A DNA stretch of 64,000 nt from positions 23,879 through 87,878 of the forward strand of contig DCGP01000017.1 in the NCBI GenBank assembly GCA_002314595.1, read 5' to 3'. Under the pieces are notes generated by a model. That model was given only the letters and a program-made list of their open reading frames with translations, did no database searches and was not told where the DNA came from. Position numbers and translations under genes: made by a program. Shown in pieces: positions 16,309-47,089 of this stretch. The stretch is from Clostridiales bacterium UBA1775. GTDB lineage: Bacteria > Bacillota > Clostridia > Monoglobales > Firm-18. The first letter of the stretch is position 1; each line of letters begins with the position of its first letter.

Positions 16309-16337
16309 TTGACACTTATATTGTTTAGTGATATAAT
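16309..16337 (+). promoter_or_regulatory. Consensus sigma-A promoter of tRNA-Gln
   Basis: TTGACA - 17 nt - TATAAT, 12 nt upstream of the tRNA 5' end. Confidence 0.6.
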
Positions 16338-16349: not shown

Positions 16350-16423
16350 TGCCGGATTGTGTAAGGGTAGCACGACAGACTCTGACTCTGTTTGTCTGGG
16401 TTCGAATCCTAGTCCGGCAACCA
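16350..16423 (+). tRNA. tRNA-Gln (anticodon CUG), CCA encoded
   Basis: Hand-folded cloverleaf. Acceptor TGCCGGA/TCCGGCA (7 bp), D stem GTGT/GCAC, anticodon stem ACAGA/TCTGT with loop CTCTGAC (anticodon CTG), T arm CTGGG-TTCGAAT-CCTAG, discriminator A, then CCA. Total 74 nt. Confidence 0.9.
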
Positions 16424-16428
16424 AAGCG

Positions 16429-16458
16429 AAAATCCTGTCCGATTAGGGCAGGTTTTTT
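16429..16458 (+). terminator. Intrinsic terminator after tRNA-Gln
   Basis: AAAATCCTGTCC-gatta-GGGCAGGTTTTTT (one G-U pair). Confidence 0.6.
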
Positions 16459-16925: not shown

Positions 16926-16945
16926 AATTTATGGAGGATTTGAGG

Positions 16946-19900
16946 ATGAAAAAAATAGGATTATATGCAATAATCAGCGTTTTGTTTTTAATATCATTTA
17001 CTATTCAAGTTTTTGCGGAAGAAAACTGTCATAGTATGATTAACGAATGGTATGGAAATGAGACTATTGCAAACAGTATTCCAAAAACTGTAAAGGAATA
17101 CTTTGATGTAAGAAAAAATTCTTTAATTGATTCTTCTCTATTTACAAGTAATTATGCAAGTGAAAAAGTACAAAAAAATGAAAATGAGCGTCGTGTAAAA
17201 ATACTTGAAATGCAATGTAGAATGAATATTAATATAGTAGATGTAGATAAACATATACAAGTATTGGAAACAAAGGTGGAAAATTCAAACACAATATTAA
17301 CTATTAAGGAATGGTTTTTCTATGATTACGATGATTTAGATGTTGAAGGGTTTAAAATTAACACAGCCGGATTTGGTACAACTCACACTTTAATTATAGA
17401 TAAGAATGATACTATTATTGATGACTTATACGATGAATCAGAAACCACAGGTATAATTACAACAGAAAGTAAAAATACTAATTTAATTAGTAAAAATATG
17501 TCAAGTTCAATAGAAAATATAGAAGAATCAAATATAAGCTTAATGAGCACCAATTTTTATTCAAGTTATAATGTTGATGCTGTTGTCACATATGCTGATA
17601 AATATTGGCAAAATTATAATACTAACTTTGCAAACTATAATCCGTATGGTGGTGATTGCACAAATTTCACATCACAATGTATTCTTGCAGGAGGAATGCC
17701 ACAAGTGTTATGTAGTAGTGGTATGACAAATGGATGGTATTATAATTCAACAAATGACCGTAGCGGTACATGGACAGTTGCTGGATACCTTAGAAATTGG
17801 ATGGCAAACAACCGAGGTGTCTTAGTAAATAATCCATCACCTTCGCAAATATACAAAGGTAGTCCTGTATTTTATAGCAGTAATGGTGGTAGTACATGGG
17901 CTCATGCTACAATTTGTGTCGGAACAAATTCAGAAGGGACTCCAATAATTGATTCTCATAATAATGATTACTATCATACAAAATGGAATTACTGGGGGAG
18001 TTCTACAACATACAGTACTGTGCAGTTGACACCGAGTAATAATTATACCAATATTCCAGCTATACAACGTGTGGTATGCACTACCAACGACGCTTCAAAC
18101 ATAGGAAATCACTCAGCAACACTTTCCGGTCATTTTACAAATCCGGGCGGTGCAAAAATTGTAAAGAGAGGTTTTCAATGGAGTACAACAACCGATATGA
18201 CACATTATACTATGTTTGATTGCAATATTACATGGGAAGATGGATTGACACATAATCAAACAACATTTTCTCCAAATACCACTTATTATTATAAATTTGT
18301 TGTTCAAGGCGAAGATGGAACATATGTATATGGGAATATGAAAAGTCTCACAACAGGACCATTTGGAAATATGACAGTTACTACAAATGATGCATATAAT
18401 ATAAAAACCAACTCTGCAACATTTAGTGGTAGTTTTTCTAATCCAAATGGTTTTGATGTGAAAAAAAGAGGATTTGTAATAGGTACTTCTTCTAATAATT
18501 TAAATTGGGAAATTATTTTCGATTGTGATATCACATGGAGTGATGGATTGACACATACCCAACCAGGACTTAAAGCTGGTACTACATATTATTACAAATT
18601 TGTTATTGGTGACGGAAATGGAAATTATAAATATGGCGGTTTGAAGAGCTTCACAACAAGAACAGCATTAGACACCGTTACAGTTACAACAAAAGACGCT
18701 TATAATATAACATCAAATTCGGCCACTTTTCATGGAAGTTTTGAACCCGGTGATTATACAATTAAAAAACGAGGATATGTTATTGGGACGGATTCAAATA
18801 ATTTAAATTGGGAAATTATTTTCAATTGTGATATCACATGGAGTGATGGCTTAACTCATACACAGCCAGGTCTTCAACCAGGAACAACATACTACTACAG
18901 GATGGTTGTGGGAGATGGAAATGGGAATTATAAATATGGCGGATTGAAATCTTTTACTACAGCTTGTAATAATCTCTCCGGACTGTACGCTATTAGACAT
19001 GTTGCAACAGGGAAGTATATTACTATGGGAAATAATGATATTGAGGGGAATCCTACGACATTAGTTGAACCAAGGTATAGCGGAGCTTTAGACACCGATC
19101 AACAATTATATTTCGAGTTGTTGTCTAATGGCGCATATAAGATTACTTCAAAAAGAAATGGATACGCATTTGAGGTAGGAGGACTTAGTAAAGATAATGC
19201 TGCTGTAGTTCAACAATGGGGATATGGAGGGATTTCCAGTCAACAGTGGTACGTATTTCGAAGGAATGACGGATATTATAAACTTGTTAATGTTAATTCA
19301 AGAAAGGCATTAGATATTGGGTCTAAAGTTCAACAATATGAGGATAATAATGCAGATGCACAAAAGTTTGAAATTATTCCGTTAACGTACGAAATCATAT
19401 ATAATGCTAATGGTGGAACAGGTGCACCAGATACACAATATAAAGTTTATAACCAAAACTTAACTTTATGCAATTCTATTTTAACCCGTCCAGGATATGT
19501 TTTCTGGGGATGGGCGGACAATGTTCAAAATGCAGAAAATGCAACATATCCAGCAGGCGGAACATTTACCGGAAACTATAGCACTACATTATATGCTGTT
19601 TGGAAAAAAGCTACCTATACCAATCATGTTCAATATTGGACTTGGGGATACAAAAATGGTGAAGGTGACAATACAGATAAAAACGCATTTTTCGTTGGAG
19701 AATATTCGTGGAATGGTGCCTTTAGCGATAGCCAAACATTTACAGAAAATATGACGAAGGAAATTCGTGGATTTAATTATCAAAAGAAATTGGTTTCTCC
19801 AACATTTACAGGTGAGTGGATTTCGTATTCTTTACCTTATACTTTTAGTCAACCAGCACAAGATGTATGGGCAAATATTGACTATGTTCCTACAGCGTAT

Positions 19901-20434
19901 GAAATAAGGTATGAATTAGATGGTGGAGTTAACAATAATGATAATCCAACTGAATATAATATTCTTTATGGAGTGAAATTCAAAGAACCGACAAAAGAAG
20001 GCTATGTTTTTAAAGGTTGGAAGGATAAAAATGGAAACGATATTGCTGGAGTTAACGAAAACTGTAATGCTTCATTTACAAGTGTTGATGATTTTTATAA
20101 TGCAGTAAATTCGAGAACTATTGGTGAAATAACTGTAAAGGCAGATTGGGAACCCATAACACCTTATACGGAATCCGTAGTTTCAGAAGCTAATAACACC
20201 TATGCTATATCAACCGATTTTATCAACATCACATCAGGCAAAATCATTGTTGCCGGATATAAAGATAATAAATTAGTTAACTTTGTTATAAGAGATTATT
20301 CACAGGAAAATGAAAGCTTTGAACTAAGTGGCGATATTGACACCATCAAGGTTATGGTATGGGATGGGCTTAACACCTTAGTGCATCTTACATCAGCGGA
20401 AGTTATTCCACAAAGTAGCTGGGCGACTGAGTAA
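16946..20434 (+). CDS. Secreted multidomain protein: amidase-like domain, 3 tandem Ig/Fn3-like modules, ricin-type lectin, Listeria-Bacteroides repeats
   Basis: Signal peptide MKKIGLYAIISVLFLISFTIQVFAEE. YADKYW...NYNPYGGDCTNFTSQCILAGG resembles the 'putative amidase domain' (Amidase_6) Cys motif. Three ~97-aa repeats. QQW/QKF beta-trefoil motifs (SQQWYVFRR, AQKFEI). Two Flg_new-type repeats (YNANGGTGAP...GYVFWGW; YELDGG...GYVFKGW). Start set to ATG 16946 after GGAGG. Confidence 0.85.
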   Translation: MKKIGLYAIISVLFLISFTIQVFAEENCHSMINEWYGNETIANSIPKTVKEYFDVRKNSLIDSSLFTSNYASEKVQKNENERRVKILEMQCRMNINIVDVDKHIQVLETKVENSNTILTIKEWFFYDYDDLDVEGFKINTAGFGTTHTLIIDKNDTIIDDLYDESETTGIITTESKNTNLISKNMSSSIENIEESNISLMSTNFYSSYNVDAVVTYADKYWQNYNTNFANYNPYGGDCTNFTSQCILAGGMPQVLCSSGMTNGWYYNSTNDRSGTWTVAGYLRNWMANNRGVLVNNPSPSQIYKGSPVFYSSNGGSTWAHATICVGTNSEGTPIIDSHNNDYYHTKWNYWGSSTTYSTVQLTPSNNYTNIPAIQRVVCTTNDASNIGNHSATLSGHFTNPGGAKIVKRGFQWSTTTDMTHYTMFDCNITWEDGLTHNQTTFSPNTTYYYKFVVQGEDGTYVYGNMKSLTTGPFGNMTVTTNDAYNIKTNSATFSGSFSNPNGFDVKKRGFVIGTSSNNLNWEIIFDCDITWSDGLTHTQPGLKAGTTYYYKFVIGDGNGNYKYGGLKSFTTRTALDTVTVTTKDAYNITSNSATFHGSFEPGDYTIKKRGYVIGTDSNNLNWEIIFNCDITWSDGLTHTQPGLQPGTTYYYRMVVGDGNGNYKYGGLKSFTTACNNLSGLYAIRHVATGKYITMGNNDIEGNPTTLVEPRYSGALDTDQQLYFELLSNGAYKITSKRNGYAFEVGGLSKDNAAVVQQWGYGGISSQQWYVFRRNDGYYKLVNVNSRKALDIGSKVQQYEDNNADAQKFEIIPLTYEIIYNANGGTGAPDTQYKVYNQNLTLCNSILTRPGYVFWGWADNVQNAENATYPAGGTFTGNYSTTLYAVWKKATYTNHVQYWTWGYKNGEGDNTDKNAFFVGEYSWNGAFSDSQTFTENMTKEIRGFNYQKKLVSPTFTGEWISYSLPYTFSQPAQDVWANIDYVPTAYEIRYELDGGVNNNDNPTEYNILYGVKFKEPTKEGYVFKGWKDKNGNDIAGVNENCNASFTSVDDFYNAVNSRTIGEITVKADWEPITPYTESVVSEANNTYAISTDFINITSGKIIVAGYKDNKLVNFVIRDYSQENESFELSGDIDTIKVMVWDGLNTLVHLTSAEVIPQSSWATE
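18071..18963 (+). repeat. Three tandem ~97-codon intragenic repeats (units 2 and 3 spaced exactly 300 nt apart)
   Basis: Units begin VVCTTNDASNI / MTVTTNDAYNI / VTVTTKDAYNI and end KSLTT / KSFTT / KSFTT. Units 2 and 3 share long identical DNA stretches (for example aataatttaaattgggaaattattttc at 18494 and 18794). Confidence 0.75.
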
Positions 20435-20560: not shown

Positions 20561-20603
20561 AAGGACAAGTGTTTTGATACCAAAATGCTTGTCCTTTTTT
20601 TAT
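20561..20603 (+). terminator. Second, stronger orphan terminator
   Basis: 16-bp stem AAGGACAAGTGTTTTG-atac-CAAAATGCTTGTCCTT (two G-U) followed by TTTTTTT. There is no ORF between it and the previous terminator. Confidence 0.55.
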
Positions 20604-20735: not shown

Positions 20736-20764
20736 TTTACTTTTTTTATGAAATATGATATAAT
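20736..20764 (+). promoter_or_regulatory. Putative promoter of the NRPS operon
   Basis: TTTACT - 17 nt - TATAAT with extended TG (TGaTATAAT), 54 nt upstream of the ATG at 20818 (SD AAGGAG). Confidence 0.45.
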
Positions 20765-20817: not shown

Positions 20818-23800
20818 ATGGATAGATTTAAAGATACAAAAAAAGAGTCTATGTTAACAGACAGTCAATTTGGCATTTACCTTGAATGTATTGATGAAAA
20901 TAATTGTGCAGACTACTTATTGCCTATTTCTTTTGTTTTTCAAAAGGGAAAAATTGATGCAGTAAAATTGTCCGACGCATTTGATAAAGTGGCAAATACT
21001 TATTCGGCTTTTTCGACTGTTATCAAAACGGTTAATTCCGAGCCTATTATGACCATTTATGATAAGGAATTGCCAAAACTAAAAGTTAGAAAAATCTCTG
21101 AAAACGATGTCAAAACAAGAAAGATGGAGCTATTTAAGCCATTTTCCTTTAACGGAGAGCTTTTGTGGAGAGGCGAAATCCTTGAAACCGAAAACGATAT
21201 TATATTTTTGCTGATTATCCATCACAATATCTTTGACGGAACATCAATGGCAGTATTAAATAATGCCCTTGCACTTGCCTATGAGGGAAAGGACTTGTCG
21301 GAGGAAGGCACAGTTTTTGATGCAAAAAAAGCAGAAGATGATATGGTTGACAACGGAATTTCAAAAGAATCAATGGATTTTTATGACGAATATTTAGACG
21401 GTATTGAAACCGACTCAAACATAATTCCCGATATGCCACAGGTCAATACCTCAAAAATGGCAGTTGTTGATGTTGCTTGTGAAATACCAATGGATAAAAT
21501 CACAGCCTTTGCAAAGGAAAATTCAGTAACTGAGAATATTGTATTTTTAAGTGCATTTGCCTATACTCTTTGCAAGGTAAATGGTCAAAAAGATGCGCTT
21601 TTCTCCTCAGTTGAAAGTGGACGATTTGGTGGAGGATACAATAATTCGATAGGTATGTTTGTAAAGTCTTTTCCAATCCGAATAAATTATGACGAGGAAA
21701 TTGCGTCCTTTGATTTCGTTAAGGGAGTTAAAACAAACTTTTTTAATACGCTATCACATAATCACATAAAATTTTCTGATTTAATTCAAAATTATTCAGG
21801 AATTGCAGATGTTAGATACATATACCAAGGCGAAATGTTTAAGGGCATTGCAGTTGGTGGTGTTGCTCCTCGCATAGATGTGCTTGATACCTATGAGCCT
21901 GTGTCCAATTTTGACTTTATGGTATACAAAATTGACAACACATTCAGAATATGGTTGGGATATAAATGCACAATGTATACAAGGGAACTAATTGAGCATT
22001 TTGCAGATATGTTTTTTTGTGTTTTAAACGGAATGTTAGACGGCAAAAAACTTGGGGATATTTCCTTTGTATCACAAAAGGGTATGGAGGAATTAGACAA
22101 AATCAATAATACAAAGTTTACCTATGACGAGGGGTTGACGGTAAACAGTATTTTTGAAGAAGCAACCGAGAAATATCCCAATAACATCGCTGTTTTATAC
22201 AAGGATAAAAAGCTGACATACAGTGAGCTTAATACTCAAATCAACAAAGTGGCAACATATGTTTCACAAAAAGGAATAGGCAAAAATGAATTTGTATCGG
22301 TTTTAATTCCAAGAAACGAATTTATGCCAATAACAGCAATGGGAATAATTAAGGCAGGTGCAGGTTATCAGCCTCTTGACCCCACATATCCAAAGGACAG
22401 GCTTGACTTTATGGTATCGGACAGCAAGTCAAAACTTTTGATTGCCGACCGAAGCTTAATAGGATTGTTGTCAGAGTACAAGGGCGATATACTATATACC
22501 GATGAAATTGATAATATTTCCGAAATGCCTTTTAAAACAGACGTAAAACCTGACAACGCATTTGTTTTGATATATACATCGGGCACAACAGGTACGCCAA
22601 AGGGGTGTATTATTGAAAACAAAAATATAGTAGCGCTGTATTTTAATCATAAAAAATTAGTTGAATTGTCGCCTAATTCAAAAGTTGCAACCATTGCAAG
22701 TTTTGGATTTGACGCAGCAGTTATGGATATTTTTACAACGCTTATGGTAGGCGCAACTCTTTATATTATTCCGGATGAAATCAAATTGGATATTCCCGAA
22801 GTAGAAAAAATATACATAGAAAACGGCATAACAAATGGTTTTATGACAACGCAACTGGGACGAATGTTTTTGGAACAAACAAAATGCAAGACACTAAAAC
22901 ATTTCGTTTTAGGGGGAGAAAAGCTTGTGCCATTCACACCACCTGCTTGGGTTCAATGTCATAACTGCTATGGCCCAAGCGAAACAATAGCCTACGTTAC
23001 AGGCTATACCATAAAAGATGACAGTTCGATGCAGCCTATAGGAAAATTAAGCATAAATACAAAGGCATATATTGTAGATTCTACAAACAGGTTGCTTCCT
23101 ATCGGTGCTTGCGGTGAACTTTGTATTGCAGGCTTGCAAGTGGGTAGGGGTTATTTTGAACGCCCTGAAAAGACTGCAGAAGTGTTTGTTAAAAATCCAT
23201 TTTCTAACGAATGTGGTTATGACAGAATATATAAAACAGGCGATGTAGTAAGATTATTGCCCGATGGAAATTTAGACTTTATCGGTCGTCGAGACGGACA
23301 GGTGAAAATTCGTGGATTTAGAATTGAGCTAACAGAGGTTGAACAGGTTATAAGAAGTTTTGACGGCATTAAAAATGCTACTGTTCAAACCTATGATGAT
23401 GCAGTTTCGGGTAAATTTATTGCTGCCTTTATTGTGGCTGACAGCAAGATTGACATTGACAAATTAAACAAATATATTATGAGTCAAAAGCCTGCATATA
23501 TGGTGCCGGCAGTTACCATGCAGATAGATAACATTCCGGTCAATGCAAACGCAAAGGTTGATAAGAAAAAATTGCCAAAGCCGGAGTATAGTTTTGGTGA
23601 AATTGTCGCACCTCAAAACAACACGCAACAAGATATTTTTGATATAGTTACATCAGTTATCGGAACAACTGCAATAAGCATTGATACCGATTTGTATCTT
23701 GCAGGTCTTTCTTCGATAGGTAGTATTAAACTATGTTCACTTTTAGCAGAGAAATTTAATATAACTATTCAAATGAAGGATTTAAAGCAAAACAATACCA

Positions 23801-26800
23801 TAGTAAAACTCGAGACGTTTGTGGATACAGCCGGACAAAATGCTGAGTTTGAACGTACAATACTTGACGATTATCCATTAACTAAAACACAAGAGGGTAT
23901 TTTTGTTGAATGTATATCAAAGCCTGAAAGTACAGTCTACAATATCCCAATTTTGTTAAAACTTTCGGATAAGCTTGATATAAATAAGTTAAAATCGGCA
24001 ATAGTTAGTGCAGTTTCAGCTCATCCCTACATTAAAACAGAGCTATTTACCGATGAAAACGGAACTGTTCGTCAAAAGAAAATGGACGATGCTCATTTTG
24101 ATGTTGACAGTATTGACAATATAAACGAAGAAATAGACAGCATAAAAGAAACATTGATACAACCCTTTGAGCTGTTAAATTCAAGACTGTTTAGGGTAAA
24201 GATAATTAAAGATTCCTATTTGTTCTTGGAATTTCATCACATTATTCTTGACGGAACGAGCATTAACCTATTTCTACGTGATATTGAAAAGGCATATTGT
24301 GGTGAGGAGCTCCAAGAAGAACGTTATAATAGTTTTGACTTGTCATATAACGAGGAGCAAAAAAGAAAAACATCAGCACTTGATGAGGCTAAAAAACACT
24401 ACGACAATATTTTAGATGGACTTGATATGAACTTCTTGCCTGAGCCGGACAGACTTATGTCGGCAAAAAAGGATAGTGGAAGCCTTTTGATGAGTCAAAT
24501 GTTACCTTCTGTTGATAAGGTTTTGGAATATTGTAACAAGAACAATATAGGTATAAACGGCTTTTTGTCCGGTGTATTTGGGTTTGTGCTTGCAAAATAT
24601 GCAGGAACTGAATACTCTGTTTTCAACACAATTTATAATGGTCGAAACGATTCCAGGGCAATGACAACTATCGGTATGCTTGTAAAAACAATTCCTGTTG
24701 TTTGCAATATCGAAAAGGAAAATTCAGCAGATATAGCAAAGGCTGTTTCATCACAAATTATAGACAGTATGACAAATGACCTATATTCCTTTGCAGAAAT
24801 CTGTAATGAGTATGGCGTTAGAAACGATATTGTTTTTGTATACCAAGGAGACGACTTTGAGTTTAATACCTTCTGTGGTGAAACGGTTAGCGAGGTACAT
24901 CTTGAATTATCCGAATCAAAGGCACCCATTGCCTTTGAGGTTTCAATCGTAAATGGTAAATTTAATTATAAGGTTGACTATAATGCCGAAATATTTACCG
25001 AAAAACTAATACAGACCTTAGTATGTGCTTTTGATAAAGCTATTTATTCCTTTGTTAATGGCGAAAAGGTAAGTGAAATTTCCCTTTTGACTGATGAAAT
25101 CACTAAGGAACTTGATAAATATAACGAAACCGAATTCGTATATGATACATCTAAAACTATTATTGACCACTATATAGAGCAAGTGAAGTTGAACCCTGAT
25201 AGGAAATGTGTTGTATACAAAGATAAAACATACACCTACAAAGAGGCCAATGATTTATCACGAAAGGTTTCATCCCATTTGATTTCAAGTGGAATAAACA
25301 AGGGTGATATTGTCGCAATTTTAATAAACCGTGATGAAAATATGATTCTTGCGTCCTATGGTGTTATTATGTCAGGATGTGCTTATGTAGGACTTGACCC
25401 AACATATCCAAAGGATAGGCTTGACCTTATGATTACCGATAGTGGAGCAAAGGCGTTGATTGCCGACCGAAGCCTAATGGGACTTATAAGTAAACCTGAC
25501 TGTAAAATCATATATACCGATGAATTTGAAGCCTTGCCAACCAACGATGATGTTGTAGACCAAAGAATCAGCGAAATAACACCGAATGACAGATGTTTGG
25601 TAATATATTCATCAGGAACGACAGGAGTGCCAAAGGGTGCAGTTTTGTGCCATAAAAACGTTGTTAGTTTCTATTACAATTATACAAATGATATGGATAT
25701 TAAGGTAGGCTCTTGTGTTGCAACCTATGCAAGCTTTGGGTTTGACGGAGGTGCACAAGATGTGTTCTGTTGCCCTATGTCAGGGGCAAGTTTGTACGTT
25801 ATTCCTGATGATATTAGGCTTGATATGGACAAGCTTGAACAATTCTATATCCAAAACAAAATAACAAGTGGATTTATGACAACACAAGTTGGTGCAATGT
25901 TTGTAAACAATACAAAGTGCCGTACACTACGCAACTTCTTAGTTGGTGGAGAAAAGCTTATTCCTGCAATTCCACCTGCTTGGACAAACTTTATGAATGG
26001 TTACGGTCCCAGCGAAACTATGTGTTATGTAAACAAATACCATGTTGCAGATACAGGAAATCTTCAACCAATCGGAAAGACAAGCAAGAATGTTAAAGAA
26101 TACATAATTGATAAGTACGGAAACAGACTTCCCTTTGGTGCTTGTGGTGAGCTTTGTATTTCAGGTGGTCAAACAGGTATGGGTTATCTGAACAGACCTG
26201 AAAAAACAGCACAATCATTTGTAAAAAATCCGTTCTGCAACCTTGAACCTTATGACAGAATGTATAAAACCGGCGATATTGCAAGGATAATGCCTGACGG
26301 AAATTATGTATTTGTAGGCAGACGGGACGGCCAGGTTAAGATTCGAGGATTTAGAGTTGAACTTTCGGAAATCGAACAACAAATAAGAAAATTTGACGGA
26401 ATAACAAATGCCACTGTTGAAGCATTTGATAGTAGCACAGGTGGAAAATTCCTTGCTGCTTACATTGTAGCAAATAAAGAAATTGACATTGCAAAATTAA
26501 ATGAATTTATAGCATCGGAAAAGCCTGACTATATGGTGCCTGCCGTAACAATGCGACTTGACGAAATACCACTTACTTCAAATGGTAAGGTAGACAAGAA
26601 AAAACTTCCTAAGCCGACCCCAACAACAAGAAAGGGAATTGAGCCTGCAAACGAAACGGAAGAAACTATTTGCGATATTTTTGAAGAGGTTTTAGGACTT
26701 GAAAAAGTATATGCCGATGATGATTTCTTTGCAATAGGTGGTTCATCTATCTCGGCAATCCAAGTTGTTGTAAAATGTAATAACGCAGGGTATAGCATAG

Positions 26801-28077
26801 TATTTAAAAATCTATTTTCAAACCCTACACCTCACGGATTATGTGAGTTTATTCACGGAGGACGTGATACAAAAGTATTTGCTCCTGATGATAAAGAAGC
26901 AGACAAATATGATTACAGTGCTTTAAAATACAACACAGTGGACTATGTAAACGAAATTACCTCAGGAGAAATAGGCGATGTTCTTTTGACAGGCGTTACA
27001 GGATTTTTAGGTAGCCATATTTTAAAGGAATTGATTGAAAACACAAGTGGAAACGTCATTTGTTTGGTTAGAGCAAAGGGCGATATGAGTGGTGAAACAA
27101 GATTCCAAATGATGATGACCTACTATTTTGAAGATTGGTTTACCGATGAAATGAAAAAACGTGTTACTGTGATTGAAGGCGAGCTGGGCGACGAAGGTAT
27201 TTTGGAAAAAGTTAAGGATTGCCATTTTGACACTATTATCAACAGTGCTGCAAATGTAAAGCATTTCGCAGCAGGCGATGAATTATTAAAGGATAACTTT
27301 ACGGGTGTTGGGAATATGGTTGCTCTTGCAGAAGAAAAGAATGCGTTATTTGTGCAAATTTCTTCAACAAGTGTCAGTGGTGAAGCCGTTGAGGGTGGAG
27401 TTTCAGACGATTTCTTGTTTAGAGAATGCGACCTAAACATTGGTCAATCCCTTGAAAATAAGTATATTTTTTCAAAATATCAAGCAGAACAACTTGTTAT
27501 TGATGCAATTTCAAAGGGGAAAATTAGGGGCAAGGTAATTCGTTTAGGCAACCTTATGGCAAGAGAGAATGACAGCGAATTCCAAATAAATGCCGGTTCA
27601 AACGGATTCTTAAAACAATTTTCCGGTTATAAAAAACTTGCAATGTTCCCTGTTGATTTGATGGATAAGCATATTGAATTTTCTCCCATAGATTCGACGG
27701 CAAAGGCAATAGTGTTGTTATCGGGAACTCCTGACAAGTTTACCGTATTCCACGCAAAAAACTGCAACTCTATACATTACGGATACTTTATTAACGCAAT
27801 GATTAGCAAGGGAATAAATATAAATATTGTGCCTAATGAGGTTTTTACAAAGCGATATAAGCAAGCACTAAATGAGGAAACGGACATTTCGGATTTTACA
27901 TCATTTATTGCATATATGAGCAATGCAAACAGCGATAAAGTTATGCACCAAATTGAATCAAGTGCAGATTTTACCACAAAGGCGTTATACAGACTTGGCT
28001 TTGCTTGGCCGTTAATAAGTAGCAAATATTTAGAGGAAATGGTTAAAACACTAATTGATTTAAGCTTTTTCTCATAA
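20818..28077 (+). CDS. Dimodular non-ribosomal peptide synthetase, C-A-T-C-A-T-R (terminal thioester reductase)
   Basis: Motifs read directly. C1 HHNIFDG (nt ~21220). A1 LIYTSGTTGTPKG / NCYGPSE / GRRDGQVKIRGFRIEL / NAKVDKKKLP. T1 LAGLSSIGS (~23700). C2 HHIILDG (~24235). A2 VIYSSGTTGVPKG / NGYGPSE / GRRDGQVKIRGFRVEL / NGKVDKKKLP. T2 FAIGGSSIS (~26740). Reductase Rossmann LLTGVTGFLGSHIL (~26985) and Y-x3-K (YIFSK). No TE domain. Confidence 0.95.
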   Translation: MDRFKDTKKESMLTDSQFGIYLECIDENNCADYLLPISFVFQKGKIDAVKLSDAFDKVANTYSAFSTVIKTVNSEPIMTIYDKELPKLKVRKISENDVKTRKMELFKPFSFNGELLWRGEILETENDIIFLLIIHHNIFDGTSMAVLNNALALAYEGKDLSEEGTVFDAKKAEDDMVDNGISKESMDFYDEYLDGIETDSNIIPDMPQVNTSKMAVVDVACEIPMDKITAFAKENSVTENIVFLSAFAYTLCKVNGQKDALFSSVESGRFGGGYNNSIGMFVKSFPIRINYDEEIASFDFVKGVKTNFFNTLSHNHIKFSDLIQNYSGIADVRYIYQGEMFKGIAVGGVAPRIDVLDTYEPVSNFDFMVYKIDNTFRIWLGYKCTMYTRELIEHFADMFFCVLNGMLDGKKLGDISFVSQKGMEELDKINNTKFTYDEGLTVNSIFEEATEKYPNNIAVLYKDKKLTYSELNTQINKVATYVSQKGIGKNEFVSVLIPRNEFMPITAMGIIKAGAGYQPLDPTYPKDRLDFMVSDSKSKLLIADRSLIGLLSEYKGDILYTDEIDNISEMPFKTDVKPDNAFVLIYTSGTTGTPKGCIIENKNIVALYFNHKKLVELSPNSKVATIASFGFDAAVMDIFTTLMVGATLYIIPDEIKLDIPEVEKIYIENGITNGFMTTQLGRMFLEQTKCKTLKHFVLGGEKLVPFTPPAWVQCHNCYGPSETIAYVTGYTIKDDSSMQPIGKLSINTKAYIVDSTNRLLPIGACGELCIAGLQVGRGYFERPEKTAEVFVKNPFSNECGYDRIYKTGDVVRLLPDGNLDFIGRRDGQVKIRGFRIELTEVEQVIRSFDGIKNATVQTYDDAVSGKFIAAFIVADSKIDIDKLNKYIMSQKPAYMVPAVTMQIDNIPVNANAKVDKKKLPKPEYSFGEIVAPQNNTQQDIFDIVTSVIGTTAISIDTDLYLAGLSSIGSIKLCSLLAEKFNITIQMKDLKQNNTIVKLETFVDTAGQNAEFERTILDDYPLTKTQEGIFVECISKPESTVYNIPILLKLSDKLDINKLKSAIVSAVSAHPYIKTELFTDENGTVRQKKMDDAHFDVDSIDNINEEIDSIKETLIQPFELLNSRLFRVKIIKDSYLFLEFHHIILDGTSINLFLRDIEKAYCGEELQEERYNSFDLSYNEEQKRKTSALDEAKKHYDNILDGLDMNFLPEPDRLMSAKKDSGSLLMSQMLPSVDKVLEYCNKNNIGINGFLSGVFGFVLAKYAGTEYSVFNTIYNGRNDSRAMTTIGMLVKTIPVVCNIEKENSADIAKAVSSQIIDSMTNDLYSFAEICNEYGVRNDIVFVYQGDDFEFNTFCGETVSEVHLELSESKAPIAFEVSIVNGKFNYKVDYNAEIFTEKLIQTLVCAFDKAIYSFVNGEKVSEISLLTDEITKELDKYNETEFVYDTSKTIIDHYIEQVKLNPDRKCVVYKDKTYTYKEANDLSRKVSSHLISSGINKGDIVAILINRDENMILASYGVIMSGCAYVGLDPTYPKDRLDLMITDSGAKALIADRSLMGLISKPDCKIIYTDEFEALPTNDDVVDQRISEITPNDRCLVIYSSGTTGVPKGAVLCHKNVVSFYYNYTNDMDIKVGSCVATYASFGFDGGAQDVFCCPMSGASLYVIPDDIRLDMDKLEQFYIQNKITSGFMTTQVGAMFVNNTKCRTLRNFLVGGEKLIPAIPPAWTNFMNGYGPSETMCYVNKYHVADTGNLQPIGKTSKNVKEYIIDKYGNRLPFGACGELCISGGQTGMGYLNRPEKTAQSFVKNPFCNLEPYDRMYKTGDIARIMPDGNYVFVGRRDGQVKIRGFRVELSEIEQQIRKFDGITNATVEAFDSSTGGKFLAAYIVANKEIDIAKLNEFIASEKPDYMVPAVTMRLDEIPLTSNGKVDKKKLPKPTPTTRKGIEPANETEETICDIFEEVLGLEKVYADDDFFAIGGSSISAIQVVVKCNNAGYSIVFKNLFSNPTPHGLCEFIHGGRDTKVFAPDDKEADKYDYSALKYNTVDYVNEITSGEIGDVLLTGVTGFLGSHILKELIENTSGNVICLVRAKGDMSGETRFQMMMTYYFEDWFTDEMKKRVTVIEGELGDEGILEKVKDCHFDTIINSAANVKHFAAGDELLKDNFTGVGNMVALAEEKNALFVQISSTSVSGEAVEGGVSDDFLFRECDLNIGQSLENKYIFSKYQAEQLVIDAISKGKIRGKVIRLGNLMARENDSEFQINAGSNGFLKQFSGYKKLAMFPVDLMDKHIEFSPIDSTAKAIVLLSGTPDKFTVFHAKNCNSIHYGYFINAMISKGININIVPNEVFTKRYKQALNEETDISDFTSFIAYMSNANSDKVMHQIESSADFTTKALYRLGFAWPLISSKYLEEMVKTLIDLSFFS

Positions 28078-28093: not shown

Positions 28094-28390
28094 ATGAATA
28101 TTGAAGTAAAAAAAGAAAACGGAAACACTGTGATTTGCCTAAACACAAGGCTTGACTCGACCACTGCCGGTGAATTAGATGAAGTAATTCAAAAAGAAGT
28201 GCAGGCTGTTGAAAACAATATGATAGTTGACTTGAAAAATGTTGATTTTGTATCATCTATCGGACTTCGTGTGCTTGTTTCTGCTTACAAGTCACTAGAC
28301 GGAAAGCAGATGATAATAAAAAATGCAAACAGTTCGATAATAGAGGTGTTAAAGCTATCCGGATTGTTATCTCTGTTTACAGTTGAGTAG
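28094..28390 (+). CDS. STAS-domain protein (anti-sigma-factor antagonist, SpoIIAA/RsbV type)
   Basis: 98 aa. DLKNVDFVSSIGLRVLV aligns with SpoIIAA LEDLSFMDSSGLGVIL, so the phospho-acceptor Ser (S54/S55, nt 28253-28258) is present. C-terminal LKLSGL motif. SD AGGAAGG, 16 nt after the NRPS stop. Confidence 0.85.
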   Translation: MNIEVKKENGNTVICLNTRLDSTTAGELDEVIQKEVQAVENNMIVDLKNVDFVSSIGLRVLVSAYKSLDGKQMIIKNANSSIIEVLKLSGLLSLFTVE

Positions 28391-28399: not shown

Positions 28400-30169
28400 A
28401 TGGAAAACAAAAAGAAAAGTATCGAATATACGAGAAATGAACGAACAACAAATAAAGTAGTAGCATTCTTTTTGCTTCTCTTCGTTGCAATGACTATCGT
28501 AAACGAGTTTATTCTAACAGTTGACTATGCAACAAACTTGGATTATGCAAACAAGTATGTATATTTTCCAATAAGCATTGTCTTAGTCTGCATTTTTGCG
28601 ATTGCATGGATATATAATTTTGAGGCATATTGGCTAAAACACGTACTGATGGGTGGACTTATTTTAGTGTCCATTATTGTGTTCTTTGTGTTTACAACCT
28701 ACGCATTGTATTCTGTCTTTATACCACTAATTATTGCAACACGATATTTTAATAAAAAAATGATTTACACAGTCTCTATAATTACCGGGGTGTTGTTTGT
28801 TGTTGCATGTATATTAAATGTCACACTGGAATCTGTTTCGGAAACAATTCAAATATTTCACCAAAATGTTGTATATAACATTTGGCAAAGTTATCTTGAC
28901 GCCATTGTTTATATAGCAATTCCTTGCCTTTTGGTTATGGTATTCATGTTAATTTTCGGAATAAATTTAACCAAAAGTGGAAGAAATTTGCTAATGGAAC
29001 AAATAGATAATAATAAAAAGATTGCATCAGTTGACGCCGAGCTTGAAATGGCAGCCAAAATACAAAAAAGCGTTCTTCCAAAGCCATATTTTCAAACGGA
29101 AAATAAAAACTTTACTTTGTCGGCATTTGAAACTCCGGCAAAGGAGGTTTGTGGAGATTTTTTTGACTATTTCATGGCAGGGGAAAACAGCATGGCGATA
29201 TTGGTTGCAGATGTGTCCGACAAAGGTGTTCCTGCAGCAATGTTTATGATGTCTGCCAAAAAGGTAATGCAATGCGCGATTGAAAGCTGCGATACATTAG
29301 ACGATGCCATTGAGCTTGCTAACAAACTAATATGCAACGACAACCAATACGGAATGTTCTTGACATTGTGGATGGGTGTAATAAATGTCAAAAGTGGTGT
29401 AGGAAAATATGTAAATGCAGGTCATCCATACCCCATTATAAAACACGCAGATGGCAGTGTTGAGTTTATTGAAAATGAACCCGATTTATTTCTTGGCAAT
29501 TTCCCAAAAAAGAACCCGAAAGTCAATACCTTTGTTATGAAGCCTGATGACGTGCTTTTTATTTACACTGATGGTTTGACTGACTCAATGAATCAGAAAA
29601 GGGAATGTTTTGGTATTAAAAGAGTTATTAACCAAATAGAGCAAAGTGAAAATGATGCTGAAAAGCTGGCCAAGTCTGTAATCGAGTCAGTAAAAGAGTT
29701 TTCAAAGGAAAGTGTTCAATTTGACGATATAACAACGCTTTGTCTAAAATGCAACAAAATTGATGAGCCGGATTTTGCAAGTTGTAAGATTACTAGTGGA
29801 ACAGAAGGCACTAAAATAATCAATGACAAAATTCAAGAGATGTTAATAAATGCAAAATGTCCTGATGAAAAGCGTCGCAATATTGGTGTAGTAGTTGATG
29901 AAATTTGCGCAAACATCAACGAACACGGCTATCACGAAAACGGAGAAATTGAAGTTAACGCACTTGTTGGAGATAATTATGCTAAAATCCAATTTTTAGA
30001 CAACGGCAAAGCCTTTAATCCTCTTGAAAAAACCGACCCGATTATAACCGACGAACCACAAATAGGTGGGTTGGGAATTTATTTTGTAAAGCAACTTTCC
30101 GACAACTTTTCCTATGAATATGTTGACGGAAAAAACAAACAGACAGTGTTATTTATATGGAATATGTAA
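28400..30169 (+). CDS. Membrane-anchored PP2C (SpoIIE/RsbU-type) phosphatase fused to an RsbW/SpoIIAB-type HATPase kinase domain
   Basis: About 5-6 TM helices (aa ~20-195). PPM motifs VCGDFFDYF, ILVADVSDKGVPAAMFM, IYTDGLTDS, FDDITTLCL. C-terminal GHKL ATPase N-box VVVDEICANINEHGY, G1 FLDNGKAFNP and G2 GGLGIYFVKQL. Starts 9 nt after the STAS stop. Confidence 0.85.
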   Translation: MENKKKSIEYTRNERTTNKVVAFFLLLFVAMTIVNEFILTVDYATNLDYANKYVYFPISIVLVCIFAIAWIYNFEAYWLKHVLMGGLILVSIIVFFVFTTYALYSVFIPLIIATRYFNKKMIYTVSIITGVLFVVACILNVTLESVSETIQIFHQNVVYNIWQSYLDAIVYIAIPCLLVMVFMLIFGINLTKSGRNLLMEQIDNNKKIASVDAELEMAAKIQKSVLPKPYFQTENKNFTLSAFETPAKEVCGDFFDYFMAGENSMAILVADVSDKGVPAAMFMMSAKKVMQCAIESCDTLDDAIELANKLICNDNQYGMFLTLWMGVINVKSGVGKYVNAGHPYPIIKHADGSVEFIENEPDLFLGNFPKKNPKVNTFVMKPDDVLFIYTDGLTDSMNQKRECFGIKRVINQIEQSENDAEKLAKSVIESVKEFSKESVQFDDITTLCLKCNKIDEPDFASCKITSGTEGTKIINDKIQEMLINAKCPDEKRRNIGVVVDEICANINEHGYHENGEIEVNALVGDNYAKIQFLDNGKAFNPLEKTDPIITDEPQIGGLGIYFVKQLSDNFSYEYVDGKNKQTVLFIWNM

Positions 30170-30214: not shown

Positions 30215-30260
30215 AAAAACGACTAACATTTAGTTAGTCGTTTTGTAGTTTATTTAAAAT
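30215..30260 (+). repeat. 46-bp direct repeat, copy A (contains terminator hairpin 30216-30244)
   Basis: AAAAACGACTAACATTTAGTTAGTCGTTTTGTAGTTTATTTAAAAT is identical to 33209-33254. The hairpin AAAACGACTAAC-attta-GTTAGTCGTTTT ends the NRPS operon. Confidence 0.9.
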
Positions 30261-34652: not shown

Positions 34653-36031
34653 TTATAGTGTTACTCCGTCTTTAAATATAGATATTTCTTCAAAACCGTT
34701 TATTTCATTTTTTGTCTTTTTGCCCGATGCAATATCTATAATAAAATCTAATAAATTATCTGCTAAATCATCTAATGAAATTCCGTCTAATATAGGTGAT
34801 GAGTCAAAATCTATCCAATGTGCTTTTTTGGTAGCAAGAGCTTTGTTGGTAGATATTTTAACCGTAGGCACTGTACTGCCAAGAGGCGTACCTCTGCCTG
34901 TGGTAAACAATATTATATGTACCCCTGATGCCATAAGGTTGGTTACGGCAACCATGTCATTGCCGGGCCCGTTAAGCAAGGATAATCCGTTTTTTGATAC
35001 AGTATCACCATAGTTAAGCACATCTACAACATTAGCAAGTCCTCCCTTTTGCACACATCCTAAGGACTTTTCTTCCAATGTGGTAATTCCTCCTTTTTTG
35101 TTGCCGGGCGATGGGTTTTCATATATTACCTGATTATGAAGTCTGTAATAATCTTTGAAGTTGTTAATAAGGTCAACTGTTTTGTCAAAAACCTTTTTGT
35201 TTTTGCATCTTTCCATTAAAAGATGCTCTGCGCCAAACATTTCCGGTACCTCGGTTAGAACACAGCTTCCTCCAAAGGATATAACCTTATCTGAAAGCTT
35301 GCCAACCAACGGATTGGCGCTAATACCACTAAACCCATCACTGCCACCACATTTCAAGCCAATACGCAAATGTGAGATATTTATAGGCTTTCTTTCAAAT
35401 GTGCTTGCGTATGCTTTTAGTTCATTTATTAGCTCTATACCCTTTGCAATTTCATCTTCCTCATCTTGGCAATTTAGAAACTTAACTCTTTTTTCTTGGT
35501 AATCACCAAGTATTTTTTAAATTCATCAATATTATTATTTTCACAGCCAAGGCCAAGTACAAGCACACCACCGGCGTTAGGGTGGTTAACCATACCCTTT
35601 AATATCAGTTGTGTTGTGGTTTGGTCGTCCCCAAGCTGTGAGCAACCAAATGGGTGAGGAAAACACTTTGCCCCTGTCTCTTGGGCAAGCTTTTGTGCAA
35701 CCTTATTTACACAGCCCACAGTATTTACTATCCATACGTCATTGCGAATACCAACATCCCCATTTTCTCTCACATATCCCATAAATGTTCTGTCGCTTTT
35801 ACAATACTCTATTCCATAATCCTTATAGTTGTATGTATATTGCAAATTATCCGATAAATTAGTTTTAATATTGTGGGTGTGAACGTGTTCACCTTTTTTT
35901 ATATCGCATATTGCATGGCCTATGGGGTAGCCGTATTTTATAATATTTTCACCACGTTTGATGTTACATACGGCATACTTGTGTCCGTTATCAAGGTTAA
36001 CCTCTACATTATCTCTTTCACTAATCAACAT
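34653..36031 (-). pseudogene. uxaA: Altronate dehydratase interrupted by a -1 nt frameshift near 35506-35509
   Basis: ORF 35474..36031 gives the SAF domain plus ...GLGCENNNIDEFKKYL and then stops. Shifting one base continues GDYQEKRVKFLNCQDEEDEIAKGIELINELKAYASTFERKPINISHLRIGLKCGGSDGFSG into ORF 34653..35369. TACTTGGTGAT would read TAC TTN GGT GAT with one extra base. Confidence 0.75.
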
Positions 36032-44212: not shown

Positions 44213-44980
44213 ATGAATAAAATTATTAAATCATTATTACCATTAACATTAGCAACCTTTATGCTTACAGGCTGTGGAAACAAAATTTCCTTTGAAAAGC
44301 ACGTTATTCCATACCCAACAAATATGGAGACAACAAAGGACGAATTAGGTGCTGACTATGCAGATTCACGACTTGACCACCCTGATACAAAATACTATTC
44401 TGCAAATAATTATTACAGTATGAAGCCAAACGAAACATTACATATTGTTAGAAATTTTAAAACATATCAACAAACAACGGAATACACAGCCGGTCCGGCA
44501 TCAACATTGATGATTTTACACCATTATGGTGTTGATGACTACACAGAAATGGACATTGCCGAAAGGACAAAAACAGATAATACAACAGGCACAACCGTTG
44601 AAAACATTTGTGCTTTTTTAGGCGATATTGGCTTAAAATGTAATTCACACGCAGACACAAATGCACAATTTGAAACAATCGAAGAGGCAGAAAAGTTCTT
44701 TATTAACCTAATTGATGCTGATATGCCTATTATGGTTAATTGGGAGGACTGGGGCGGACATTGGCAGGTTCTTATTGGTATTGATACCTGTGGCACAGAG
44801 TCTTGCCTTGACGATGTTATGATTTTTGCAGACCCTTATGATATTACCGACCACTATCAAGACGGATATTATACATATTCATTAGGCAGATTCTTCTACC
44901 AATGGAAAGAGGGCGCGATGTTGCAAAAAGAAAACCCCTATGTTCAACCGTTTATTGTAATCTATAAAGATTTTACTTAA
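44213..44980 (+). CDS. Lipoprotein with a peptidase-C39-like (papain-fold) domain, Ala at the expected nucleophile position
   Basis: Lipobox LTGC (signal MNKIIKSLLPLTLATFMLTGC). QQTTEYTAGPASTLMILHHYG resembles the C39_2 Q...CGPAS...G block with Cys replaced by Ala. GGHWQVLIGID and ADPYD resemble the His and Asp blocks. Confidence 0.55.
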   Translation: MNKIIKSLLPLTLATFMLTGCGNKISFEKHVIPYPTNMETTKDELGADYADSRLDHPDTKYYSANNYYSMKPNETLHIVRNFKTYQQTTEYTAGPASTLMILHHYGVDDYTEMDIAERTKTDNTTGTTVENICAFLGDIGLKCNSHADTNAQFETIEEAEKFFINLIDADMPIMVNWEDWGGHWQVLIGIDTCGTESCLDDVMIFADPYDITDHYQDGYYTYSLGRFFYQWKEGAMLQKENPYVQPFIVIYKDFT

Positions 44981-44991
44981 TACTTATTTAT

Positions 44992-45669
44992 ATGGGACTG
45001 GTTAAATTGAAAAAAATATTATCTCCGTCTATTATTTCATATTTATTGCTTGCATTATCCGGTGGATGTATGGATGCCTACTCATACATTTGCAGGTCAA
45101 AGGTTTTTGCAAATGCGCAAACAGGAAATGTCTTGCTTTTTGGCATTAACCTTTCGGAAGGTAATTGGAATATGGCTTTCAAATATTTATTGCCAATAGT
45201 TGCTTTTATTTTGGGAGTTGTGATTTTAGATATTTTAAAAAGATTATCAAAACATAATAATTGTTGGGAAAGGTATGCAATAATTATTCAGTTAATCGCA
45301 CTTTCCATTGTTTGTTTTATTCCAAACACCTATGACAAATTTGCAAATATGATAATATCATTTACCTGTGGAATTCAGGTAGAAGCATTTAAATCGGTTA
45401 ATAACACAGATGTTGCCACAACAATGTGCATTGGTAATTTAAGTAAGGGAACACATCAATTAGTTGAATATATAAAAACAAAAAATACGGTAAATTTAAA
45501 ACGATTTTCAATTTATTTTTTGATTATTATTTTCTTTACCATAGGTGCTGTTATTGAAAATATCATTATTTATTATTGGGGCAATTTGGCAATACTATTA
45601 TCGGTTTTATTACTATCAATCGTGCTATTACTTTCAATTTTAAAAAATCAAAAAAAGGAGATACAATGA
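44992..45669 (+). CDS. DUF1275 (YoaK-like) membrane protein
   Basis: LSGGCMDAYSY and ANAQTGN motifs plus six predicted TM helices. Confidence 0.75.
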   Translation: MGLVKLKKILSPSIISYLLLALSGGCMDAYSYICRSKVFANAQTGNVLLFGINLSEGNWNMAFKYLLPIVAFILGVVILDILKRLSKHNNCWERYAIIIQLIALSIVCFIPNTYDKFANMIISFTCGIQVEAFKSVNNTDVATTMCIGNLSKGTHQLVEYIKTKNTVNLKRFSIYFLIIIFFTIGAVIENIIIYYWGNLAILLSVLLLSIVLLLSILKNQKKEIQ

Positions 45670-47084
45670 AAGCGTACATATTACAGCCTCAATATTCAAA
45701 CGATTTGCAAAAATCCGATGAGTTGTTTTACAAAAAAATAGAGATGCTAAATGATATTGGCAATGATGCTGACATAGTTGTGTTACCTGAGTACAGTGAT
45801 GTGCCCTGTGCAGTTAAAACAAAGGAAGAGCTATCACTATTTCACGAAAAATATATGGATATACTTGTAACCGAATGTATTAAAACAGCTAAAAAAAATC
45901 AATGTGTTGTATTTTTTAATGCTCTTGACAAGGTAAATAACAGGTACAGAAACACAACATTTGCTGTTAATAAAAATGGTGAAATAGTTGGAAAATACTA
46001 CAAAACCCATATTCCACCCGGTGAAAAGGCACTTGATATTGATGACAAATATACAATAGAAAGTTCTGAACCATACATATTAGAAATTGATGGTATAAGA
46101 TACGGCTTTTTGACATGCTATGATTTTTACTTTTATGAAGCATTCCCAAGGATTGCAAGATACAATGTTGATATAATTATCGGTTGTTCATTACAACGAA
46201 GCGACAGCCACTATGCACTTGAAACTATGTGCAGATTTTTGGCATATAACACAAACGCCTATGTTTTGCGCTCTTCGGTAAGCTATGACGAAAATGCAAC
46301 CATTTGTGGTGCAAGTATGGCAGTTACACCTGAGGGCAGGTTACTAATGAATATGGAGGGCAAATTTGGATATGGCACCTGTGAATTTGACCCACATTCA
46401 AAATACTTAAAGCCTGCCGGATTTGGCAGACCATTAGCACCACACTACGAATATATTGAAGAGGGCAGAAACCCTTGGCAATACAGAAATTGTGGAAGTG
46501 CAATATGTCCAACTGATAAATTGATGAAATTTCCAAGGATATGCGCTGAAAGCAACCTTTTAGGTAATGATAATATTAACATTATGGCATCAATTGGTAG
46601 TTTAGTTGGCATAGGAGTAAATGAAATTAAGTTAAACGTATCCTCAATCAATAATGAACCGATTACAAAATGTGGTATCGGATATGTTAATTTGGAAAAA
46701 ATCTTACAAAAGTTTGCTTGTCATTCCATTCTTAATTTACAAATAGAAGATATTAGTTTAATTGAAAAGGTTGCACCTCTTATTAAAAAATATGACTGCA
46801 TTTATCATACATATTTTACATCAAGTAATGTTGAAGTGCTGAATAAAGTTAAAAACCTATTGGCTGAATGTAAAACTTGTTCTGTTGGCAGTACAGAAAA
46901 TCAAGTGGATAAAATTCAGCTAAATGCAAGTGAAATTAGTGAAGAAATCATTAAAAAATTGCACTCTAAAAGTATTGTCTGTAATGTTGTTTGCAATGAT
47001 ATTAAAGAAGTAAACAACGCTTTAAAATCAGGTGCAGACACTATAATTTACAACAAGTGTATAGATGTAATAGATTTATTTTAA
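45666..47084 (+). CDS. Carbon-nitrogen hydrolase (nitrilase superfamily) with a C-terminal degenerate GDPD-like region
   Basis: E-K-C triad candidates VLPEYS, YYKTH, FLTCYD. The last ~170 aa weakly resemble a glycerophosphodiesterase TIM barrel (LNLQIEDIS, GADTIIYNK) without the catalytic His residues. ATG 45666 overlaps the upstream stop (ATGA). Confidence 0.65.
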   Translation: MKAYILQPQYSNDLQKSDELFYKKIEMLNDIGNDADIVVLPEYSDVPCAVKTKEELSLFHEKYMDILVTECIKTAKKNQCVVFFNALDKVNNRYRNTTFAVNKNGEIVGKYYKTHIPPGEKALDIDDKYTIESSEPYILEIDGIRYGFLTCYDFYFYEAFPRIARYNVDIIIGCSLQRSDSHYALETMCRFLAYNTNAYVLRSSVSYDENATICGASMAVTPEGRLLMNMEGKFGYGTCEFDPHSKYLKPAGFGRPLAPHYEYIEEGRNPWQYRNCGSAICPTDKLMKFPRICAESNLLGNDNINIMASIGSLVGIGVNEIKLNVSSINNEPITKCGIGYVNLEKILQKFACHSILNLQIEDISLIEKVAPLIKKYDCIYHTYFTSSNVEVLNKVKNLLAECKTCSVGSTENQVDKIQLNASEISEEIIKKLHSKSIVCNVVCNDIKEVNNALKSGADTIIYNKCIDVIDLF

Positions 47085-47089
47085 AACAG

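Follow-up and report, generated by a model that had tools for sequence, protein, structure and literature searches.

A predicted dipeptide-aldehyde synthetase of an uncultured gut Clostridiales bacterium, in a putative operon with STAS and PP2C/kinase genes

The genome of Clostridiales bacterium UBA1775 contains a gene for a reductase-terminated non-ribosomal peptide synthetase (NRPS) at positions 20818-28077, on the forward strand, of the stretch we analysed: 64,000 nucleotides (nt) of contig DCGP01000017.1 (GenBank assembly GCA_002314595.1), hereafter the window. The reading we favour, with moderate confidence, is that this gene encodes a functional synthetase releasing an N-acyl dipeptide aldehyde, and that it is co-transcribed with a dedicated partner-switching module made up of a STAS-domain protein and a membrane-bound fusion of a PP2C phosphatase to an RsbW-like kinase. 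An original prediction, made from the sequence of the window, had described the synthetase and proposed a possibly N-acylated dipeptide aldehyde as its product; what is new here is the presence of the STAS and PP2C/kinase genes in the NRPS operon, which is the only unusual feature of the locus.

The NRPS gene is a single unbroken open reading frame (ORF) of 2419 codons, opening with ATG and with an AGGAG ribosome-binding site 8 nt upstream; it is delimited by the ORF itself and by Pfam and NCBIfam matches. A whole-protein Pfam scan returned two Condensation, two AMP-binding (each with AMP-binding_C), two PP-binding and one NAD_binding_4 match, and no thioesterase domain. The domains were also cut out and scanned singly against Pfam gathering scores, which all of them pass; the match for the second condensation domain was taken from the whole-protein scan (residues 1017-1432). 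The order of condensation (C), adenylation (A), thiolation (T) and reductase (R) domains is C-A-T-C-A-T-R, as the original prediction had it. From the N-terminus these are C1 (residues 10-425, 20845..22092; 132 bits alone, covering profile positions 4-454 of 456), A1 (446-913, 22153..23556; 225 bits alone), T1 (940-1002, 23635..23823; PF00550, 39.8 bits alone), C2 (1017-1432, 23866..25113), A2 (1454-1924, 25177..26589; 216 bits alone), T2 (1949-2012, 26662..26853; PF00550, 42.3 bits alone) and R (2057-2419, 26986..28074; PF07993, 130 bits alone), all on the forward strand.

Re-translation of the window also recovered the motifs on which that prediction had been built. Both condensation domains have an intact HHxxxDG - HHNIFDG in C1 (residues 135-141, 21220-21240) and HHIILDG in C2 (1140-1146, 24235-24255) - and these are conserved in six relatives. 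The carrier domains have their attachment serines, Ser966 in GLSSI (963-967, 23704-23718; a GLSS variant of the usual GGxS) and Ser1977 in GGSSI (1974-1978, 26737-26751), within motifs conserved across the NRPS clade. The short-chain dehydrogenase/reductase-type domain that takes the place of a thioesterase carries TGVTGFLG (2058-2065, 26989-27012) and YIFSK (2216-2220, 27463-27477). E-values reach 1e-130, ruling out a chance match, and an identical protein is present in NCBI, JGI and Logan assemblies, which excludes an assembly artefact.

Two genes follow closely on the same strand. The first (28094..28390) begins 16 nt past the NRPS stop codon and encodes a STAS-domain protein of 98 residues, of the anti-sigma-factor-antagonist type (PF01740, 56 bits; TIGR00377, 62.5 bits against a cutoff of 53.45). 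It carries the phosphorylatable-serine motif KNVDFVSSIGLR, and residues S54, S55 and G57 are invariant in six orthologues. The second (28400..30169) begins 9 nt past the STAS gene and encodes a fusion protein of 589 residues, in which five to six transmembrane (TM) segments (residues 16-194, by hydropathy) precede a PP2C/SpoIIE domain (262-451; PF07228, 149.6 bits) and a HATPase_c_2 domain (476-584; PF13581, 62.5 bits). The PP2C metal-binding aspartates and the kinase N and G boxes are present, with D253, D271, D274, D391, D395, D442 and D443, and likewise E501, N505, G556, G557 and G559, invariant in four orthologues; the best solved relative of the fusion is Rv1364c of Mycobacterium tuberculosis (PDB 3KE6).

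The gaps of 16 and 9 nt, together with the terminator-like hairpins that bracket the three genes (one at 20561-20596, ending the upstream gene, the other at 30216..30244 on the forward strand), lead us to predict a single co-transcribed operon with the NRPS gene in first place. A consensus scan placed a promoter-like site (TTTACT-17-TATAAT, with a TG extended -10) at 20736..20764 on the forward strand; this site and both hairpins are pattern matches only. No riboswitch or leader RNA was found upstream of the NRPS gene, Rfam returning only a tRNA-Gln in the whole window. The GC content of the operon is that of the rest of the window, and gives no sign of recent horizontal transfer.

Is the arrangement peculiar to this genome? 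Genomic context was looked up for every close relative of the NRPS, and the resulting clade comprises the window and six further loci. A STAS gene lies directly 3' of the NRPS gene in all seven, and the PP2C/kinase fusion is found in five. The layout of the window (NRPS, taken as 100% identity, then STAS and PP2C/kinase) recurs with P0002 (locus L007, 65% NRPS identity) and P0005 (L013, 61%); with P0003 (L098, 64%) and P0007 (L017, 59%) the pair is in turn followed by a phosphopantetheinyl transferase (PPTase) gene, at 17416-18048 in L098 and 15045-15764 in L017; and with P0004 (L012, 63%) and P0006 (L009, 61%) only the STAS gene follows. A decayed PP2C/kinase gene after the STAS gene of L009 was sought by tblastn, and no remnant was detected. 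The genes flanking the NRPS are unrelated in each of the seven loci. Identities among orthologues are 52-65% for STAS (the six other loci) and 47-53% for the fusion (the four other loci that have it), with the catalytic residues of both invariant throughout; this divergence is about that of the NRPS, suggesting that the cassette has co-diverged with it. Moreover, the position of the pair between the NRPS and the PPTase in L017 and L098 is hard to reconcile with chance adjacency. In farther relatives (P0008, P0009 and P0012, at 48-53% identity) the pair is absent.

Outside the clade, 80 distant relatives of the fusion (28-38% identity) were fetched from metagenomes. Most have an adjacent STAS gene, and NRPS genes lie near only three, so association with an NRPS is not a general property of the fusion family. 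Two of the three look operon-like: L092 (1-6071) has the R-domain end of an NRPS followed by MATE, TIM-like, STAS and HAMP-PP2C-kinase genes, and L022 (4890-13744) has PP2C-kinase, STAS, MATE, A-T-C and MATE genes. As these are unrelated contigs, the association of an NRPS with a STAS and PP2C/kinase pair appears to have arisen more than once, and it may be recurrent in gut Firmicutes. A literature search joining STAS or partner switching with NRPSs gave no paper linking the two, nor did it return any report of the cassette in dipeptide-aldehyde NRPS clusters.

How common such pairs are on their own, the loss of the PP2C/kinase gene in two clade members and the lack, in the literature searched, of a mechanism tying them to an NRPS would all be expected if the STAS and PP2C/kinase proteins served an unrelated stress or sigma-factor circuit and were mere neighbours of the synthetase. 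We consider this unlikely, given that STAS adjacency is kept in seven of seven loci despite unrelated flanks, with gaps of 9-16 nt, that in two loci the pair is placed between the NRPS and PPTase genes, that it has diverged to the same degree as the NRPS, and that the arrangement is found again, independently, in L092 and L022. As a dedicated partner-switching module, the two proteins would couple synthesis to a signal from the membrane or envelope by way of the phosphorylation state of the STAS serine. No sigma-factor gene adjoins the NRPS and STAS genes in the window or in the six related loci. It is possible, and we raise it tentatively, that the pair is an integral, dedicated control of the assembly line, in which unphosphorylated STAS protein might act on the synthetase or its carrier domains rather than via a sigma factor. 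If true, this would be the first partner-switching module shown to govern a non-ribosomal peptide pathway, and L092 and L022 would suggest a recurrent design in gut Firmicutes NRPS clusters.

The acyl group of the proposed product is attributed to C1, the condensation domain that opens the protein. Degeneration of this domain, a concern raised with the original prediction, is not seen: its Pfam match is full length and HHxxxDG is intact in seven of seven clade members. Mean identity within the clade is about 51% for C1, 53% for T1 and 57% for C2, and this similar divergence favours purifying selection over decay. C1 and C2 of the same NRPS share only 25.5% identity.

The placement of C1 draws on a second set of relatives. 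Many homologues of about 2980 residues have the architecture A-T-C-A-T-C-A-T-R, and in a MAFFT alignment of 183 A domains their first A domain has G, A, I or V at the position of Asp235, a replacement that marks them as carboxylic-acid loaders. These three-module proteins (P0009-P0011, P0017-P0030 and P0035-P0043), with the acid-loading module built in, are presumably lines making N-acyl dipeptide aldehydes with acyl activation in cis; they include sizeable sequence clusters (P0026 with 92 members, P0025 with 32). A tree was built from 120 related C domains, classed by the domain preceding them, with 500 column bootstraps. N-terminal C domains and C domains after acid loaders form one group, apart from internal C domains. 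Leaving its own clade aside, C1 had only N-terminal or after-acid-loader domains among its ten nearest neighbours in 494 of 500 bootstraps, whereas C2 fell with the internal C domains in all 500 and had no N-terminal or after-acid neighbour in any replicate. C1 starts at residue 10, leaving no room for a docking domain. Given the grouping with after-acid C domains and the missing room for docking, C1 is best read as an acyl-accepting, starter-like domain with its donor supplied in trans; the grouping favours N-acylation, and so lends support to what had been offered as a qualifier, "possibly N-acylated".

C1 stands apart from internal C domains, but it is not closer to a known starter domain than to the LCL type: phmmer against PDB gave 68 bits for BacC and 67.7 bits for TycC6, both LCL-type, and only 27.8 bits for the starter C of surfactin synthetase (8F7H). 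C1 is accordingly not placed in the canonical lipo-initiation (Cs) clade; it is starter-like by context, with canonical Cs membership not established. A greater likeness to solved LCL-type domains would also be expected of an ordinary LCL domain fed by a separate A-T protein, the product then being a tripeptide aldehyde or an aldehyde with a specific acid as its cap, and the nearest three-module relatives (P0009-P0011, 46-50% identical) do have an A-T pair in cis ahead of the corresponding C domain. Asp235 is missing from those loaders, however, so that acids and not amino acids are loaded. Further, no stand-alone A-T or carrier protein was found in the window, there is no docking sequence ahead of C1, and a separate A-T gene is seen in none of the seven clade loci; we therefore hold a separate A-T partner to be highly improbable.

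For C1 as an acyl-accepting domain, the question is then where the acyl group would come from. The window was searched with Pfam on 30 flanking ORFs, with two clade PPTases by tblastn and with a T-domain hidden Markov model (HMM) over all six-frame ORFs; no PPTase, free acyl or peptidyl carrier protein (ACP/PCP), fatty-acyl ligase, type II thioesterase, MbtH protein or exporter was found in it. With neither acyl ligase, free carrier protein nor PPTase in the window, the donor is likely to be drawn from the acyl-CoA or acyl-ACP already present in the cell. Such a source agrees with the product of a related Clostridium NRPS cluster expressed in Escherichia coli, N-octanoyl-Met-Phe-H, which was accompanied by a congener whose acyl chain had four more carbons and an internal double bond (PMC8518294).

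That no acyl-activating gene was found in the window could also mean that C1 is silent in vivo, in which case the free dipeptide aldehyde would cyclise spontaneously to a dihydropyrazinone and then oxidise to give a pyrazinone, the route taken by the aureusimines. The canonical architecture of pyrazinone or dipeptide-aldehyde synthetases has been described as C-A-T-C-A-T-R (PMC10979478), and gut dipeptide aldehydes were first isolated in pyrazinone form (PMC12327764). A silent domain sits poorly, however, with a full-length C1 that keeps HHxxxDG in every clade member and clusters with C domains after acid-loading modules, and a related Clostridium cluster gave N-acyl products from host acyl pools (PMC8518294). 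We regard silence of C1 as a rather doubtful possibility, and N-acylation by a working C1 as the preferred reading. In the literature, gut Clostridia NRPSs of this architecture yield pyrazinones or N-acyl dipeptide aldehydes (PMC10979478, PMC8518294, PMC8210680), which bears out the link to these products made in the original prediction; an N-acyl tail makes the aldehyde more stable (PMC8210680), and in ruminopeptin the N-acylated aldehyde is that of Leu-Glu (PMC8518294).

The other end of the assembly line determines how the chain would leave. From its sequence the last domain is a thioester reductase, and the HMM search that might have spoken otherwise matches PF07993 at 130 bits. The solved structures closest to the last 394 residues are all thioester reductases of NRPSs or carboxylic acid reductases (CARs), led by the PCP-R didomain of Mru_0351 (PDB 6VTJ, 199 bits, E 9e-58) and then by the aldehyde-forming R domain of AusA (PDB 4F6C, 114 bits); the alcohol-forming R domains of MxaA and of M. 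tuberculosis (Mtb-R) score 67 and 36 bits. The TGxxGxxG glycines and the Tyr/Lys pair of YxxxK are invariant in 13 relatives.

The extent of reduction, two or four electrons, is not readable from R-domain sequence (PMC8024701), and NRPS R domains of the same fold, those of MxaA and Mtb-R, release alcohols. A four-electron reduction here, giving an (acyl-)dipeptide alcohol in place of the aldehyde, is nonetheless very unlikely in our view, as the score against the AusA domain is far above those against MxaA and Mtb-R and as aldehydes are what the characterised gut synthetases release (PMC8518294, PMC8210680). We thus predict the aldehyde by family resemblance, the one hint in the R domain itself being that it is more similar to AusA than to alcohol-forming domains.

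The specificity codes derived by hand in the earlier work, DAMFVGCAYK for A1 and DGQFLGGCYK for A2, were reproduced exactly by the MAFFT alignment of 183 A domains, which also settles a concern that they might be off by one: position 299 is V or L and position 301 is G. Both codes describe apolar pockets in which the residues at 301, 322 and 330 are small, so the substrates are predicted to be hydrophobic amino acids, with no closer identity. Neither these codes nor four related ones had a match in a full-text literature search. The A2 code is nearest, at 7 of 10 positions, to the Ile code DGFFLGVVYK, a likeness that was given no weight in assigning a substrate. Comparison of the pocket regions (window 22711-23562 and 25177-26589) with those of P0002-P0007 shows C, D or G at position 322 of A1 across the clade, and L, Q, M, I or T at position 299 of A2. 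This variation suggests that the clade, at 59-65% identity, is diversifying its choice of substrates with all else kept.

Put together, the reading we favour would run as follows. A PPTase encoded outside the window would prime Ser966 and Ser1977, and A1 and A2 would each load one hydrophobic amino acid. C1 would move an acyl group from the cellular acyl-CoA or acyl-ACP pool to the amine of residue 1, C2 would form the peptide bond, and R, with NAD(P)H, would cleave the T2 thioester reductively to release an N-acyl dipeptide aldehyde, a putative covalent-reversible protease inhibitor. Chains escaping acylation would cyclise to a dihydropyrazinone or pyrazinone. Several observations weigh against this scheme. 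C1 is nearer to BacC and TycC6 than to the surfactin starter domain; an acyl-activating enzyme, a free carrier protein, a PPTase and an exporter were all sought in the window and not found; R sequence alone cannot separate two-electron from four-electron domains (PMC8024701); and un-acylated pyrazinones have been obtained from NRPSs of this architecture in heterologous hosts (PMC10979478). As regards the switch, the PP2C/kinase gene is missing from L012 and L009, and a sigma factor or other obvious STAS target is absent from all seven loci.

The genes around the operon were also considered as possible members of the cluster. Just upstream, at 16931-20434, a protein of 1167 residues combines an Amidase_6 domain with Listeria-Bacteroides (Flg_new) repeats and three Ricin-B lectin repeats. 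It is probably a secreted enzyme that binds cell wall or glycans and has nothing to do with the cluster; it was rejected as a member since its gene ends in a terminator of its own and does not occur in any related locus. On the downstream side, genes for AraC, ADH and a GFO oxidoreductase were set aside too, as they adjoin genes of hexuronate catabolism. Within that hexuronate-utilisation cluster (UxaC, a mannitol-dehydrogenase-family gene, GH4), the altronate/galactarate dehydratase at 34653-36031, on the reverse strand, is divided between two ORFs with some 100 nt between them (GD_AH_second, 35474-36031; GD_AH_C, 34653-35369), either a natural two-subunit form or a disrupted gene. The lone tRNA-Gln (CTG anticodon) lies at 16350-16423, between a promoter (16309-16337) that matches the sigma-70 consensus at 12 of 12 positions and has an extended -10, and a terminator-like hairpin (16434-16452). 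At 44213-47642, a lone Peptidase_C39-like protein of 255 residues stands beside DUF1275, a CN_hydrolase protein of 502 residues and LuxS, with no bacteriocin or ABC-transporter partner for it among the ORFs scanned. Among the related loci, L012 (2439-6909; P0004, elephant faeces) carries, immediately 5' of the NRPS gene and in the same orientation, a beta-lactamase-fold gene and a set resembling genes for ribosomally synthesised and post-translationally modified peptides (PqqD, ScmC-like, radical SAM).

Gut Clostridia make peptide aldehydes that potently inhibit proteases, host cathepsins among them, and each new divergent synthetase broadens the chemical space of host-active metabolites. The NRPS described here comes from an uncultured herbivore-gut lineage, whose ClpC reaches at most 71% identity to recorded sequences and has best named matches labelled only "Clostridia bacterium"; it has novel specificity codes and is at most 65% identical to the other recorded relatives; as an essentially single-gene cluster, it is directly testable by heterologous expression. 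The STAS and PP2C/kinase cassette offers a testable lead on how, and to what signal, gut anaerobes switch such pathways on; it is also relevant to the usual silence of these clusters in culture and to the difficulty of observing their native products.

The family to which this NRPS is best compared, the dipeptide-aldehyde synthetases of gut Clostridia, was reportedly described by Guo et al. 2017 (Cell 168:517), and the ruminopeptin (rup) pathway of Ruminococcus bromii reportedly by Schneider & Balskus 2018 (Tetrahedron 74:3215). The protein has two complete A-T modules and a joining C domain in one reductase-terminated polypeptide, and a further C domain (C1, HHNIFDG) before module 1, as in the gut C-A-T-C-A-T-R subfamily. 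Its nearest database relatives, 59-65% identical, are from uncultured metagenome-assembled genomes (MAGs) and elephant-faeces metagenomes: IMG metagenome 3300001598, sampled from faeces of an Asian elephant aged six years (PMC4160196), is the source of P0004 and P0006, and others are from UBA MAGs labelled Clostridiales. The NRPS has several features in common with the gut family (e.g. MIBiG BGC0001686): the order of domains, a host among the gut Clostridia, a cluster that is essentially one gene, and a product predicted to be an (N-acyl) dipeptide aldehyde or a pyrazinone (PMC10979478, PMC8518294, PMC8210680). We therefore regard it as a new, divergent member by architecture and predicted chemistry as described; no NRPS homologue returned bears a name tying it to BGC0001686 or to rup clusters.

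Ruminopeptin is likewise the predicted N-acylated dipeptide aldehyde protease inhibitor of a gut Clostridia NRPS (PMC12327764, PMC8518294), but it ends in a Glu-derived aldehyde, whereas the A2 pocket here seems to have no basic residue for an acidic side chain. AusA/PznA, the aureusimine synthetase of Staphylococcus aureus, is also a dimodular NRPS with a terminal R domain and dipeptide aldehyde release (PMC8210680), and the AusA model (NF047350) is the best NCBIfam match, at 1104 bits over residues 359-2412. The equivalog cutoff of 2500 is not reached, and C1 matches only the internal C domain of the model (positions 997-1399, 43 bits), not its N-terminus; the protein is thus AusA-like, not an AusA orthologue, and the products of AusA are un-acylated pyrazinones. 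Mru_0351, from the rumen methanogen Methanobrevibacter ruminantium, has the closest solved R domain and a gut or rumen habitat in common with our NRPS, but is itself a larger multi-module enzyme whose product is unidentified (PMC8024701). Archaeal NRPS fragments (P0059 and P0068, from Methanobrevibacter sp. and Methanomethylophilaceae) occur among the homologues, which hints at an NRPS family shared by gut Clostridia and gut archaea.

For the cassette, the closest described logic is that of SypE/SypA in Vibrio fischeri. As in the fusion described here, SypE and Rv1364c of M. tuberculosis combine an RsbW-like serine kinase and a PP2C phosphatase in one polypeptide, and their partner is a STAS protein of a single domain whose serine is conserved, like the STAS protein of the window (PMC8256260, PMC10120452). 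The output of SypE/SypA is not a sigma factor encoded in cis (PMC8256260, PMC10120452); its STAS protein acts on an unidentified non-sigma target (PMC8256260). Unlike these systems, the fusion here has an N-terminal region of five to six TM segments and no receiver domain, and lies inside an NRPS operon.

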